From assembly GCA_028868715.1 (NCBI GenBank), contig JAGWUB010000001.1, positions 183,206 to 247,205 of the forward strand: a stretch of 64,000 nt of DNA, written 5' to 3'. A program made the position numbers and the translations under genes. This document shows positions 48,289-55,333 of this stretch, one piece after another; the first letter of the stretch is position 1; each line of letters begins with the position of its first letter. Under the pieces are notes generated by a model. The model made no database searches, was not told where the DNA came from, and saw only the letters and a program-made list of their open reading frames with translations. This stretch comes from Patescibacteria group bacterium (GTDB taxonomy: Bacteria; Patescibacteriota; Minisyncoccia; Phycocordibacterales; UBA9973).

Positions 48289-49419
48289 TTAACGGATAGT
48301 TGCTCCGAAAATTTTTGCTGTTTCAGTCTCCAATTTTTTATGGACTTCATCTATCTCTTTTCCAGTGAGTGTCTTTTCCAGTGAGCGATAGGTGATTCTA
48401 TAGGCATAACTTACTTTTCCCTCACCAAATTTTTCAACGTTCTCATATTTATCCAAGAGTTCTACTTCTTCTATAATTCCAGGTGCCAATTCTCGGACAA
48501 AATCAAAATAATCATTTGGAACAAAATCTGTTTTGACTACAAAAGAAATATCTCTAACTATTGGAGGGTATTTACTAACTTCTTTAAATTTATTTCCAAG
48601 CTTCAGTTGTTTTTTAACGCGATCATCTTCGGACCAAAGTAATCGAATGTCTGGTAGCTGCATGCTGGCAATAGCTAAGCGCTCGAGCCCAAAACCAAAA
48701 GCCCAACCATGATAGCCCTCTAGCCCTAAATTTGATAAGACGCTTTTACGTACCATTCCACAGCCCAACATTTCAACCCATCTACCATTAATTTCTGCCT
48801 CCATTTCAAAACTAGGATCTGTATAAGGGAAGTTGTGGTCATAAAAACGAAAATTTATATTGCCAAAAATACTTGTGGCTATTTCCGAAAGAGTATTTTT
48901 TAAGTCCTCGGGGGTAATTGTTTTTTTATCATCTGGAGCTATCAGCCATCCACCAAACTGATGGAAAACATTCATGTGGTGACGATCAATTTCGTCTTTA
49001 CGGTAAACCTTACCATAACAAATAGCTCCAAGGGTTTCTTTATTTTCAATTCTCTTTTTTATATCTGGATGATTTAAGTAATAGTACCAAAAGACTGTGT
49101 CATGAGTTCGTAAAACATTTCCTTCATCTACATAATAAGTGTCGGATTTACTACGAGCTGGGTGTCCTTCGGGCATATTAAACAAATCAAACATAATATT
49201 TACCGGAATAATTTCTGGAATTTTTATATCATCAAAATCTTTAAGGCTCGGAACCTTTTTTGCTTTCTTTACAATTTCTTCGAGTGGGCTCCCAGAGGTT
49301 CGGGACAAATCCGGCATGGATAAATAGCGTTTTAAGCGGAGTGAGTATATATCCTGTTTTGAATCCAAGTCCCTTTTTAATGATTCTTCTTCGGGAGAAG
49401 TTACAATATAGTTTGACAT
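48289..49419 (-). CDS. pheS: Phenylalanine--tRNA ligase alpha subunit
   Basis: 'FNMPEGHPARSKSDTYYV' motif and class II motifs 2/3 ('GWAFGFGLERL'). Confidence 0.75.
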   Translation of the reverse strand: MSNYIVTSPEEESLKRDLDSKQDIYSLRLKRYLSMPDLSRTSGSPLEEIVKKAKKVPSLKDFDDIKIPEIIPVNIMFDLFNMPEGHPARSKSDTYYVDEGNVLRTHDTVFWYYYLNHPDIKKRIENKETLGAICYGKVYRKDEIDRHHMNVFHQFGGWLIAPDDKKTITPEDLKNTLSEIATSIFGNINFRFYDHNFPYTDPSFEMEAEINGRWVEMLGCGMVRKSVLSNLGLEGYHGWAFGFGLERLAIASMQLPDIRLLWSEDDRVKKQLKLGNKFKEVSKYPPIVRDISFVVKTDFVPNDYFDFVRELAPGIIEEVELLDKYENVEKFGEGKVSYAYRITYRSLEKTLTGKEIDEVHKKLETETAKIFGATIR

Positions 49420-52068: not shown

Positions 52069-53319
52069 TTATTTTTTATTTTTTATTTCCTCCAAAAGTT
52101 TTTTGAGAAGGTCTTCTTTGGGCATCTGACCAAGTTGACCGTTGTCACGAGATTCTAGAGTTATTTTTCCGGCTTCTATTTCCTTATCACCAATTACTAT
52201 CCAGTAAGGCATTTTGTTATGTTTGGCATCGCGAACTTTGGTGCCGAGATTTTCATCTTTATCATCTAACTCGGCACGAATATTATTTTCTCGAAGCATT
52301 TCATAAACCTCACGGGCATATTCGTTGTGATTTGTGCGTACAGGGATGACTTTTACTTGCACCGGTGAGAGCCAAAGAGGGAAGGCGCCTTCATATTTTT
52401 CTATAAGGAAGGCCATACTACGTTCAATAGCCCCGATAGATGAACGGTGTACCACGAAAGCAAGATGCGTTTCACCATCTTCACCAATATAATTTAAATT
52501 AAATTTACCAGGCATACAAAAGTCATATTGAACAGTGAAGGCTGTGTCTTCTTTACCATTTGCATTTTTCATTTGTATATCTATCTTTGGTCCGTAAAAA
52601 GCTGCTTCATCTTTTGCTTCTTCAAATTTACTTCCTCTTTTCTGCATCAATTTTCGAAGTAGGTCTTCGCTTTTTTCCCAAGCTTCATCATTTTTAAAGT
52701 ATTTTTCAGTATTATTTCTGTCTCCGAGAGAAAGGCGATATCTATAATCAGTATCAAGTTTTAACCCAAAGACAGAAGTAGCATATTCGATGAGGTCAAG
52801 AGCTTTACCTATTTCTTCTACTGCTTGTTCTTCGGTGGCGCAGATTATATGTGCGTCTGACAGACAGAAAGTTCTCACTCTTTGTAGGCCCATAAGCTCA
52901 CCAGATTGCTCATAACGATAAAGTTGAGCAAGCTCGGCTATGCGCATAGGTAGTTCTCTGTAACTATGTGGCTTTGAAAGGTAAAGTTCAAAGTGGTGTG
53001 GACATGTCATAGGACGTAGCATAAACTCTTCGTCATCTATTACGATAGGCGCGTACATCGAATCTTTATAATGGGGATAGTGTCCAGACTTTTTGTAAAG
53101 ATCTAACTTGGCAATATCGGGAGTGCGAACGTGTAAGTATCCTCGTTTTATTTCTTCGTCTACAATAAAACGTTCAAGTTCTCGACGTACTGTCGCCCCC
53201 TTAGGTAACCATAATGGTAATCCTTTACCCACCACGTCACTAAAGGTGAATAGCTCCATTTCTCTACCTATCTTCTTATGATCTCGGCTTTTTTCGCCGT
53301 CTTGTTCATTTTTGTCCAT
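52069..53319 (-). CDS. thrS: Threonine--tRNA ligase, catalytic core plus anticodon-binding domain only (no N-terminal TGS/editing domains)
   Basis: 'RPMTCPHH', 'RVRTFCLSDAHIIC' and 'WLSPVQVKVIPV'. Only 416 aa. Confidence 0.7.
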   Translation of the reverse strand: MDKNEQDGEKSRDHKKIGREMELFTFSDVVGKGLPLWLPKGATVRRELERFIVDEEIKRGYLHVRTPDIAKLDLYKKSGHYPHYKDSMYAPIVIDDEEFMLRPMTCPHHFELYLSKPHSYRELPMRIAELAQLYRYEQSGELMGLQRVRTFCLSDAHIICATEEQAVEEIGKALDLIEYATSVFGLKLDTDYRYRLSLGDRNNTEKYFKNDEAWEKSEDLLRKLMQKRGSKFEEAKDEAAFYGPKIDIQMKNANGKEDTAFTVQYDFCMPGKFNLNYIGEDGETHLAFVVHRSSIGAIERSMAFLIEKYEGAFPLWLSPVQVKVIPVRTNHNEYAREVYEMLRENNIRAELDDKDENLGTKVRDAKHNKMPYWIVIGDKEIEAGKITLESRDNGQLGQMPKEDLLKKLLEEIKNKK

Positions 53320-53399: not shown

Positions 53400-53630
53400 A
53401 TGGTAGTACGAATGAGACATACAAAATCGCATACGAAAAACCGACGTTCTCATCACGCATTGAAGAGCACGAGTTTTACTAAGTGCGAAAATTGCAAGGC
53501 CTTAAAGCGACGTCACACCGTGTGTTCGGCGTGTGGATTTTACCGAGGCAAGAAGGTTTTAGATTTGGTTAAAAAATTAGAAAAGAAACAAAAAAAAGCC
53601 AAAGCAAAGAAAGCAGAAGCAAATAAGTAG
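53400..53630 (+). CDS. rpmF: 50S ribosomal protein L32 with Lys-rich C-terminal extension
   Basis: 'HTKNRRSHHAL...CENCKALKRRHTVCSACGFY'. Confidence 0.8.
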   Translation: MVVRMRHTKSHTKNRRSHHALKSTSFTKCENCKALKRRHTVCSACGFYRGKKVLDLVKKLEKKQKKAKAKKAEANK

Positions 53631-53697
53631 TATTAGGCCCTGGGCCTTAGGCTTTAAATATTTTAAAACCTAAAACCTAAAGCCTAACGTCAAAAAA

Positions 53698-54633
53698 ATG
53701 GCAAATAGGCACCTTTCAAGATCAATAGTACTTCAAACGCTTTTTGAGTGGGATTTCCTTCCTGCCGATAAAAAAGATAATAGTTCCGCTAATGGTGAGA
53801 TAATCGAAGCGCTAAAAAGAAACCTAAAAGAATTCGCTCCAGGACTGGAGGATGATAATTTTGTGCTTGCGCTCATAAGTGAAGTCTTAAAAAATCACGT
53901 AGTTATTGACGAGATTATAGAAAAGGCGGCGCCAGATTGGCCACTGGACAAGATTTCCATCGTTGATAGAAATATTTTGAGAATTGGCCTCTATGAGCTT
54001 CTTTTTGGCGACAGGACTCAAGTACCTCCGAAGGTGGCGATCAATGAAGCCATAGAATTAGCCAAAACCTTCGGCGGAGAAAACTCCAGTAAGTTCGTCA
54101 ATGGCGTACTCGGTGCGGTTTATAAAGAAATAGGCGAACCTGGTAAGGAGCAGAAAAGTAAAATTACTAAAAACAAAAAGTCAGATGAGCCAGTAGACAT
54201 TAGTAAATTAGACATCGAAAGATTGGGTGGGGCACTAGTTTACTCAAAAAATGGTAACGAAATACTTCTCGCTTTCGTGCATGATGTTTTCGGGTATTGG
54301 ACTTTGTCAAAAGGCAAGATCAAGGAAGGTGAGGACGTAGAAGATGGTACTAAGAGAGCAATTAAGAAAGAAATAGGCCTTGATATCGTAATAGAAGAGA
54401 AGTTGGGAGAAAATGAATATGTTGCGACACATCCGTCCAACGGCAAGAGTTTGAAAAAGGTAACTTATTTTTTGGGTAGGAGTGAATACAAGGAGCTAGA
54501 GCTTGAGAAGTCAGGTGGCCTAGATGGAGCGAGATGGTTTGCGCTTTCAGCTATTGCCGAGCTTCGCATTTATAGCGACATTATCCCAATTATTGAAAAG
54601 GCGATCAAAATTATTAGTTCAGAGAATAAATAA
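53698..54633 (+). CDS. nusB: NusB-NUDIX hydrolase fusion protein
   Basis: The N-terminal 150 aa are NusB ('VAINEAIELAKTFGGENSSKFVNGVLG'). The C-terminal 140 aa carry a Nudix box 'GKIKEGEDVEDGTKRAIKKEIGLDI'. Confidence 0.75.
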   Translation: MANRHLSRSIVLQTLFEWDFLPADKKDNSSANGEIIEALKRNLKEFAPGLEDDNFVLALISEVLKNHVVIDEIIEKAAPDWPLDKISIVDRNILRIGLYELLFGDRTQVPPKVAINEAIELAKTFGGENSSKFVNGVLGAVYKEIGEPGKEQKSKITKNKKSDEPVDISKLDIERLGGALVYSKNGNEILLAFVHDVFGYWTLSKGKIKEGEDVEDGTKRAIKKEIGLDIVIEEKLGENEYVATHPSNGKSLKKVTYFLGRSEYKELELEKSGGLDGARWFALSAIAELRIYSDIIPIIEKAIKIISSENK

Positions 54634-54637
54634 TAAT

Positions 54638-55333
54638 ATGATAAATTTTCCAGAATTTGAAGAAAAAACAAAAATATTTTTTAAAGATAAAAACTTGCTC
54701 AAGCAAGCTTTTACGCACCGTTCGTATATAAATGAAAATATTGGAACAGCACTTTCGCACAATGAGCGACTAGAATTTTTAGGAGACGCAGTGCTGGAGT
54801 TGATTGTGACAGATTTTCTTTATAAAAAATATCCAAAGTACGCCGAGGGCGAGTTGACCGCGGTACGTTCAGCTCTAGTAAATGCGATCATCATCTCTGA
54901 AGTAGCTAGCAAGGCCGGCATGAATGATTATTTACTATTGTCTCGCGGAGAGGCTAAAGATCATGGTAAGGCACGACAATATATCTTAGCCAATACTTAT
55001 GAAGCTTACATCGGAGCTCTATATCTAGATCAAGGCTATGATGTGGTGGCTAAATTTTTAAGTGAAAATCTTTTACCAAAAACAGATGAGATAGTAAACA
55101 AAAAACTTTGGCGCGATGCCAAAAGTTTAGTTCAGGAAAAGGCACAAGAATTCATCCAAACTACACCCCAATACAAAGTTTTAAGCGAATCAGGGCCCGA
55201 TCATGACAAGCACTTTACTGTAGGGATTTTCTTTGGATCTGAATTAATAGCTCAAGGTAGTGGTAAGTCCAAACAAGAAGGAGAGGTTGCAGCCGCTCAA
55301 GCAGCATTAAAAATAAAAAATTGGCTAGACTAA
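54638..55333 (+). CDS. rnc: Ribonuclease III
   Basis: 'ERLEFLGDAVLELIV' and a C-terminal dsRBD. The start was set at the Met at 54638. Confidence 0.85.
   Translation: MINFPEFEEKTKIFFKDKNLLKQAFTHRSYINENIGTALSHNERLEFLGDAVLELIVTDFLYKKYPKYAEGELTAVRSALVNAIIISEVASKAGMNDYLLLSRGEAKDHGKARQYILANTYEAYIGALYLDQGYDVVAKFLSENLLPKTDEIVNKKLWRDAKSLVQEKAQEFIQTTPQYKVLSESGPDHDKHFTVGIFFGSELIAQGSGKSKQEGEVAAAQAALKIKNWLD

Follow-up and report, generated by a model that had tools for sequence, protein, structure and literature searches.

NusB is classically a single-domain protein of about 140 amino acids (aa), which together with S10/NusE binds boxA in the leader of the precursor rRNA (pre-rRNA) and builds the rRNA antitermination/chaperone complex. 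As a core factor of rRNA transcription and 30S-subunit biogenesis it is near-universal, and in Escherichia coli its gene lies in the context ribE-nusB-thiL. In the present study, we analyzed a gene (nusB::nudix) in a stretch of 64,000 nucleotides of DNA from a Patescibacteria group bacterium (contig JAGWUB010000001.1; hereafter, the window), which instead adjoins rnc and in which NusB is welded to a C-terminal Nudix domain, as it is across a class of the candidate phyla radiation (CPR). The closest characterized homolog of the appended domain is aq_158 of Aquifex aeolicus (3I7U/3I7V), long annotated as a diadenosine tetraphosphate (Ap4A) hydrolase and described in 2026 as an "Omnivore RNA pyrophosphatase" that strips triphosphates, diphosphates, and 7-methylguanosine (m7G), nicotinamide adenine dinucleotide (NAD), flavin adenine dinucleotide (FAD), nucleoside tetraphosphate (Np4), and sugar caps off RNA 5' ends (PMC13145063). 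Our results show that the gene encodes a bona fide NusB, probably the one of this lineage, tethered by a flexible linker of about 25 residues to an aq_158-type Nudix fold, and that the fusion is conserved across a large CPR/Paceibacteria clade of ultra-small bacteria. As for its function, we propose from sequence and analogy, with a probability of about 0.45, that in the window protein an RNA pyrophosphohydrolase has given rise to a module, tethered to NusB, that binds 5' ends or nucleotides.

Architecture and distribution of the NusB-Nudix fusion

A first-pass annotation of the window had placed the open reading frame (ORF) exactly (Table 1), and its reading of a NusB domain fused to a C-terminal Nudix domain was borne out by Pfam, where both domains scored above gathering: NusB (PF01029) over residues 7-143 with E = 1e-35 (123.4 bits against 23.1), and NUDIX (PF00293) over residues 179-297 with E = 2.5e-10 (40.9 bits against 21.1). 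The protein also exceeds the cutoff of the NCBIfam nusB equivalog TIGR01951 (124.3 bits, cutoff 88.35), and in a sequence search of PDB the N-terminal half found NusB structures (best E = 2.6e-19) and the C-terminal half Nudix enzymes. Like the NusB proteins of E. coli, Thermotoga, Aquifex, and Mycobacterium tuberculosis, the first 145 residues are helical; unlike the matched solved NusB chains, which are single-domain and 139-156 aa long, the fusion protein adds a C-terminal extension of 165 residues. In an AlphaFold2 (AF2) model based on 53 homologs, with a mean predicted local distance difference test score (pLDDT) of 81 and a predicted TM-score (pTM) of 0.52, the NusB helices extend over residues 4-145 (block-mean pLDDT 71-94), residues 146-164 are disordered (pLDDT < 50), and residues 172-309 form a well-folded alpha/beta/alpha domain. 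With this pTM, the two domains are predicted to have no fixed packing against each other. The linker had been described as basic. This holds for a Lys-rich patch, KEQKSKITKNKK, which follows the initial GEPGK, but an acidic stretch comes next, and across the family the linker is composed of 25% K/R and 23% D/E. The GEPGK at its start is invariant among close homologs.

Relatives were collected in a scan of one genome per GTDB species, which confirmed at least 597 of them; because NusB contains one of the two patterns used, not all of the 597 are necessarily fusions. The best 80 were inspected as species representatives. In this set, no part of the protein is better conserved than NusB, whose identity to the query averages 72%, whereas that of the Nudix domain averages 56%. 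The N-terminal 20 residues of NusB and the region 109-144 are nearly invariant among homologs, which is consistent with binding to S10/NusE and boxA. A NusB-type N-terminal domain on an RNA-acting catalytic domain is also found in RsmB/Sun, the methyltransferase for m5C967 of 16S rRNA, and the NusB part of the window protein matches RsmB models. In RsmB, however, the partner is an S-adenosylmethionine-dependent methyltransferase, and the domain resembling NusB is paralogous to, and distinct from, the cell's own NusB.

For the C-terminal domain, the top match of Foldseek against PDB was aq_158 (3i7u), with a TM-score of 0.87 normalized to the target, a root-mean-square deviation (rmsd) of 2.6 A, and 26% identity; MutT1/Rv2985, DR1025, NrtR, Dcp2, Ndx1, CT771, and NUDT2-type Ap4A hydrolases ranked further down. 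A family profile built from 38 diverse C-terminal domains likewise matched 3i7u over its whole length with E = 1.2e-21, followed more weakly by CT771 (3e-16), Ndx1 (1e-13), NUDT2-type and Caenorhabditis elegans Ap4A hydrolases (about 1e-12), and Dcp2 (about 3e-10). Thus, by sequence and predicted structure, the domain is placed in the diadenosine oligophosphate (ApnA) hydrolase/aq_158 subgroup. The window protein and aq_158 have in common the W-x-x-x-K-G loop, E212, R220, E225, and the overall fold, whereas aq_158 is a standalone protein of 134 aa with a full R-E-V-W-E-E and a Glu at the equivalent of G274. No curated NCBIfam Nudix family was reached by the domain or by the 38 family members. 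RppH models were matched by 23 of the 38, the most for any NCBIfam family, with scores of about 20-40 bits where the cutoffs are about 118; the window protein itself reached 20.8-22.4 bits against 118 (PRK00714 equivalogs) and was rejected as an RppH ortholog. It has the Nudix fold in common with RppH, and a similar role at RNA 5' ends is conceptually possible.

The fusion is not a standard bacterial nusB, as had been stated, and the suggested check for its co-occurrence among CPR genomes showed it to be conserved in a large CPR clade. Both Pfam domains are present in all of the 120 closest 90%-identity clusters (73-100% identity, 300-343 aa), drawn from NCBI, JGI, ENA, and Logan assemblies, and all of the 80 inspected species loci have a continuous ORF through the Nudix domain that covers query residues 1 to about 303-311. 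The record titles of these loci name Nomurabacteria, Paceibacterota/Paceibacteria, Zambryskibacteria, Lloydbacteria, Niyogibacteria, the Parcubacteria group, and Minisyncoccia. Many loci (e.g. L075) are labeled 'uncultured Candidatus Saccharibacteria' and one 'Flavobacteriaceae bacterium'; these labels probably reflect generic or wrong taxonomy, or bin contamination. An exhaustive HMMER search with the Nudix part alone against 1.84 billion 50%-identity representatives gave 788 matches at E <= 1e-3. Among the best 150 of these, 61 also contain NusB, 37 of them at full length, and the Nudix-domain identity among the full-length fused representatives falls to about 28%, which argues that the fusion is old and stable. 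A frameshift or sequencing error joining two separate genes, which had been named as a possible refutation, or a mis-assembly, is rejected as the cause, since the same continuous ORF is present in hundreds of independent assemblies.

No genuine split pair of nusB and nudix genes was found among the apparent standalone close relatives. One of these (P0124) proved to be a contig-edge fragment with rnc next downstream. Another (P0139/L085; L085 542-1459, GCA_013565675.1) proved to be an rpmF-nusB::nudix-rnc operon in a highly fragmented assembly, in which a single in-frame TAA at the codon of the invariant Tyr142 leads gene callers to give a separate NusB and Nudix; this TAA is probably a sequencing error or marks a recent pseudogene. 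A truly standalone Nudix relative (P0150) lies on a 695-bp contig and another relative (P0163) on a 993-bp contig, both without gene context. A standalone Nudix with the canonical R-E..E-E (P0147; L083 4001-4453) has genes of a phage or mobile element around it, namely an integrase, a DNA methylase, and a Phage_rep_O-like gene. In the 64-kb window, there is no second NusB or second Nudix gene.

A protein identical to that of the window is present in NCBI, annotated solely as 'transcription antitermination factor NusB'. The searched literature gave no description of a NusB-Nudix fusion, and a survey of the Nudix clan has no mention of NusB (PMC5389931). The architecture is thus real, widespread, and uncharacterized, with its sequences and Pfam domains held in databases under the plain NusB name.

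The Nudix box and its variation across the family

Set against the consensus GX5EX7REUXEEXGU, the box of the window protein reads G206-x5-E212-x7-R220-A221-I222-K223-K224-E225-I226-G227-L228. In HMMER alignments, its R-A-I-K-K-E stands opposite R-E-V-W-E-E of aq_158 (3i7u) and Thermus Ndx1 and R-E-V-K-E-E of yeast Dcp2. The box had been called complete, but it lacks two of the three REUXEE glutamates: as both the sequence and the residue-level alignments show, Ala stands in for the Glu of RE and Lys for the first Glu of EE. One more catalytic position has also changed. The general base of Dcp2, E198, was located through the E198Q entry 4kg4, which differs from 2jvb at that column; G274 aligns with it and with the Glu at SEQRES index 97 of aq_158. 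Distant canonical standalone relatives have E-[IV] at position 274, whereas the fused family has a nearly fixed G-G-L-D. Of the four acidic residues used by the nearest enzymes, the window protein is thus seen, from these alignments, to keep one, E225.

The Nudix boxes of Dcp2 and the window protein are strikingly similar (window version, GKIKEGEDVEDGTKRAIKKEIGLD), and both proteins combine a helical N-terminal domain with a Nudix domain, although Foldseek aligns them poorly, over about 250-270 columns with an rmsd of about 15 A, and homology of the helical domains is not implied. Dcp2 keeps E149, E152, E153, and E198, whereas the window protein retains the equivalent of E153 only. Unlike active RppH, the window protein naturally carries the equivalent of RppH-E53A, the same change from RE to RA, which is catalytically dead (PMC6061791). 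Since the box is incomplete, the most likely mechanism for the window copy shifts from hydrolysis to binding; as judged from these residues, its Nudix domain is likely, but not certain, to be catalytically inactive. A degenerate box inside a multidomain protein is also the state of the non-catalytic Nudix-homology domains (NrtR/AraR/DBC1-like), and such domains typically bind small molecules or partner domains (PMC5389931). In NrtR and AraR, as in the fusion protein, a degenerate Nudix domain is fused to a nucleic-acid-targeting domain and takes part in transcription control. Unlike in the window protein, where the fusion partner is an RNA-binding elongation factor, NrtR and AraR are fusions with DNA-binding winged helix-turn-helix domains that act as repressors, and they match the domain far more weakly than the ApnA hydrolases do.

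The first-pass annotation had also envisaged that the Nudix box residues might not be conserved in orthologs, and this is the case in part. All three box glutamates are present in 18 of the 120 close homologs and 36 of the 80 species representatives, and R-E..E-E is kept in 7 of the 37 diverse full-length fused 50%-cluster representatives, in which position 274 is mostly G, in comparison with 16 of 22 full-length standalone relatives. In the triplet 221/224/225 of the 120 close homologs, the window state A-K-E was found 63 times, and E-K-E and E-E-E 18 times each. The three glutamates are all present in just 4 of the 17 species that form the clade of the window protein (at least 68% identity) but in 32 of the 63 species farther away; position 274 is Gly in all of the 80. 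On a neighbor-joining tree of 237 fused sequences, parsimony required at least 27 changes between Glu and another residue at position 221 and at least 35 at position 224, against 6 at 225 and 5 at 274. With an independent UPGMA (unweighted pair group method with arithmetic mean) topology, positions 221 and 224 were at the 72nd and 47th percentiles of variability in the domain, and E225 and G274 at the 6th and 8th.

The least variable sites of the domain are D196, F198, W201, T202, K205, W280, and Y292. In a diverse alignment of 38 sequences, Y292 is invariant and G178, D196, W201, T202, K205, Y257, and W280 are at least 90% conserved; the W-T-x-x-K-G signature common to ApnA hydrolases and Dcp2 is kept in the fused family. 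The sequences thus point to clear purifying selection on the Nudix domain, but not at the classical catalytic glutamates. Such a pattern is the signature of a fold kept for binding or structure once catalysis is dispensable. Because the fold and other residues (D196, F198, W201-T202, K205-G206, E225, Y241, Y257, W280, and Y292) are strongly constrained, the domain probably has a conserved function independent of classical Nudix catalysis.

Possible roles of the appended domain

The appended domain was probably an active pyrophosphohydrolase when it was fused to NusB in an ancestor of the group, since more of the distant species show REIKEE than any other state and since RNA 5' ends are deprotected by the closest characterized homolog. 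Later, the acids for metal binding and catalysis would have been lost in many lineages, especially in the window's clade (A221, K224, and G274); catalysis would have been dispensable in these lineages, and nucleoside-oligophosphate binding or a structural role would have been kept. In the window protein, the domain would then be a binding module for a nucleoside-oligophosphate group, with hydrolysis absent or very slow. The nascent pre-rRNA leader, with its 5'-triphosphate or a non-canonical cap close to boxA, would offer the most plausible ligand. With NusB/S10 positioned on boxA of the 5' leader, a Nudix domain on a tether of about 25 residues would be well placed to meet the 5' terminus of the leader, and for this reason a module that binds the 5' end (triphosphate or cap) is favored. 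Once bound, the 5' end of the leader could be held or marked inside the NusB/S10-boxA complex during processing of the leader-trailer helix by RNase III, the product of the adjacent gene. The linkage of NusB and RNase III fits known biology, as rnc mutations suppress defects of Nus factors (PMC4807359). If the domain acts on or binds the 5' end of pre-rRNA, there would be a new link between assembly of the antitermination complex and RNA 5'-end chemistry, and a subunit type would be added to the rRNA antitermination complex (rrnTAC) in organisms with minimal genomes.

Several points weigh against 5'-end binding as the role of the domain. About 45% of the inspected species keep the canonical box, so that true enzymes may exist within the family, whose function is possibly catalytic. 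E225, the second Glu of EE, is kept and nearly invariant; it corresponds to the residue mutated in inactive Ndx1 (E50Q, seen in the alignment of 1vc9) and, by SEQRES index, to the position of the E51A mutation of aq_158 (PMC13145063). Since it is retained, residual or non-canonical catalysis is possible. A precedent, for mechanism only, is MERS1, the mitochondrial RNA 5' pyrophosphohydrolase of Trypanosoma brucei, which has a degenerate box with RE changed to RT and is an RNA pyrophosphohydrolase once activated by a partner, possibly with a Glu supplied in trans (PMC6913127). Furthermore, the retention of binding residues is argued from sequence analogy, and several of the conserved aromatic residues may be core residues. 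The putative reach to the 5' end depends on how far boxA lies from the start of the pre-rRNA in these organisms, and the window has no rRNA operon.

Some of these points could also be taken to mean that the fusion is an active tethered enzyme. NusB would deliver a pyrophosphohydrolase to the boxA-bound leader, and nascent pre-rRNA, or another boxA transcript, would have its 5'-triphosphate or non-canonical cap turned into a 5'-monophosphate through E225 together with non-canonical acids, e.g. D276, or a residue in trans. The homolog aq_158 does exactly such chemistry on RNA 5' ends, and RppH was the most-matched NCBIfam family, with all scores far below the cutoff. The first-pass annotation had likewise proposed a Nudix enzyme that acts on nucleotide caps or alarmones at the transcription complex, and it pointed to the right neighborhood of chemistry, but the window copy is not a complete enzyme. 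A221 is a change of the kind that kills RppH, K224 puts a positive charge at a metal-ligand position, and G274 removes the alternative general base; positions 221 and 224 moreover evolve at or above the average rate of the domain, unlike in true Nudix hydrolases and in the canonical standalone relatives. We therefore regard an active enzyme in the window as a possible but doubtful explanation. An extension that embraces both states of the box is that the antitermination complex of Paceibacteria has a built-in reader and eraser of 5' ends. In lineages with an intact box, the 5'-triphosphate or the NAD or Np4N cap, captured beside boxA, would be converted to a 5'-monophosphate, and in lineages with a dead box, such as that of the window, the 5' end would be clamped, which would close the leader into the complex bound to RNA polymerase and tie RNase III processing to the state of the 5' end. 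This scheme is unlikely as a whole; if true, 5' ends would be under co-transcriptional surveillance of a new kind, in the middle of a transition from enzyme to pseudoenzyme.

Two other possibilities, each of them improbable and to a similar degree, also dispense with catalysis. The domain might sense a free nucleotide such as Ap4A, ADP-ribose, an NAD-derived metabolite, or the alarmone (p)ppGpp and, in the manner of NrtR and AraR, tune the NusB/boxA complex and rRNA output to the nucleotide or stress state. NrtR (3gz8) and AraR (5dd4/5bs6) are among its structural and sequence neighbors, the W-T-x-x-K-G signature of ApnA hydrolases is kept, and small molecules are common ligands of non-catalytic Nudix domains in multidomain regulators (PMC5389931); however, these two regulators are much weaker matches than the ApnA hydrolases, and an AF2 model with a disordered linker and no fixed interdomain contact offers no evident allosteric path to NusB. 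Alternatively, the domain might be a structural subunit, a protein-protein scaffold in the antitermination complex, for example a stand-in for SuhB, for which the nucleotide pocket is irrelevant. SuhB, a subunit of the rrnTAC with an enzyme fold, acts in this NusB-dependent complex independently of its inositol monophosphatase activity (PMC4807359), although it serves as a mechanistic precedent only. The dispensability of the catalytic residues while the fold is conserved, and the tandem degenerate Nudix-like domains in the C-terminal region of some RNase E-type proteins (see below), would agree with a scaffold, but K-G of the substrate-binding loop and E225 are among the most conserved residues, which is more typical of a kept pocket than of a new interface.

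Neighbor-gene fusions are common in reduced genomes, and the pair might thus be functionally uncoupled, a merger of nusB with a neighboring housekeeping Nudix gene whose product is slowly decaying, as its catalytic residues are. This is very improbable: the domain is intact in all of the 80 species with many near-invariant residues, the fusion persists down to about 28% identity, the GEPGK start of the linker is invariant among close homologs, and the apparent splits came down to a contig-edge fragment and a single in-frame TAA. Whichever role the domain has, the family offers a natural series of canonical and degenerate boxes on one scaffold, which is convenient for the study of the passage from enzyme to binding module, and the ideas are testable with recombinant proteins although the organisms are uncultured.

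Gene neighborhood and related Nudix-like domains

Table 1. Features of the nusB::nudix gene and its neighbors in the window
Feature	Position	Strand	Basis or remarks
nusB::nudix fusion ORF	53698..54633	+	311 aa; stop codon inside coordinates
NusB domain, residues 1-145, all-helical	53698..54132	+	PF01029, TIGR01951, PDB matches, AF2
Flexible linker, residues 146-171	54133..54210	+	AF2 pLDDT, composition
Nudix-fold domain, residues 172-309, aq_158/ApnA-hydrolase type	54211..54624	+	PF00293, Foldseek, family profile
Degenerate Nudix box, residues 206-228, GKIKEGEDVEDGTKRAIKKEIGL	54313..54381	+	Sequence, alignments to aq_158/Ndx1/Dcp2, family statistics
A221, in place of the RE glutamate	54358-54360	+	Sequence and alignments
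K224, in place of the first EE glutamate	54367-54369	+	Sequence and alignments
G274, inside the invariant G-G-L-D, at the position of the extra catalytic Glu	54517..54519	+	Alignments; comparison of fused and standalone proteins
rpmF (ribosomal protein L32)	53400..53630	+	Pfam Ribosomal_L32p, E = 3.3e-16
rnc (RNase III)	54638..55333	+	Pfam Ribonucleas_3_3, E = 1e-36, plus dsrm
Short SMC-family gene after rnc, 710 aa	55349-57481	+	SMC_N head split over residues 3-695
Phenylalanyl-tRNA synthetase (PheRS), 375 aa, tRNA-synt_2d core fused directly to FDX-ACB	48289-49419	-	Pfam
Threonyl-tRNA synthetase (ThrRS), 416 aa, only catalytic core and anticodon-binding domains detected	52069-53319	-	Pfam

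The fusion gene has rpmF directly upstream and rnc directly downstream in 78 of 80 related loci. In the window, rnc starts 4 nt past the stop codon of nusB::nudix (Table 1), and the two are probably co-transcribed. Consensus scans gave no convincing plus-strand promoter or terminator inside the rpmF-nusB::nudix-rnc cluster, all calls being at the background level. The intergenic region between rpmF and nusB (53631-53697) contains a short, weak GC-rich hairpin, GGGCCTTAGGCTT, that runs into a T-rich tail (53642-53654), and 'cctaaa'-like units recur in the same region. The terminator-like call on this hairpin was also at the background level. No rRNA operon or boxA was found in the 64-kb window, only three tRNAs.

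A canonical SMC protein has about 1,200 aa, far more than the 710 aa of the SMC-family protein in the window, and in many of the related genomes the SMC query matches two consecutive ORFs. A PheRS consisting of the core and FDX-ACB resembles the monomeric mitochondrial-type enzyme rather than the usual bacterial alpha2-beta2 enzyme. A typical bacterial ThrRS also carries N-terminal TGS and editing domains, which are apparently absent from the ThrRS of the window. A gene of the RNase R type (RNB) lies nearby on the opposite strand.

The hidden Markov model of the NusB-fused family also matched Nudix-like domains on other proteins. Three proteins of the RNase E/G type (P0244, at L086 5001-8225, P0271, and P0272), composed of S1, RNase_E_G, and a thioredoxin-like domain, carry two to three such domains in tandem in the C-terminal region, with thoroughly degenerate boxes (R-T-V-K-G-E, Q-A-L-K-N-E, and Q-T-L-K-N-D). 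They are encoded on three separate metagenomic contigs and are 46% identical, and their nearest plain relatives are alphaproteobacterial RNase E. The C-terminal region of E. coli RNase E acts as a scaffold. The tandem domains appear to be an independent reuse of the fold, and we take them as side evidence for its non-catalytic use on RNA machinery. Among further architectures, a protein of 855 aa (P0247) combines HATPase_c, a STAS-like DUF4325, and a cold-shock domain with NusB and Nudix; one of 577 aa (P0175) has an unannotated N-terminal region of about 300 aa followed by NusB and Nudix; and one of 379 aa (P0226) joins Sigma70_r4 and a DnaA_C helix-turn-helix to Nudix.

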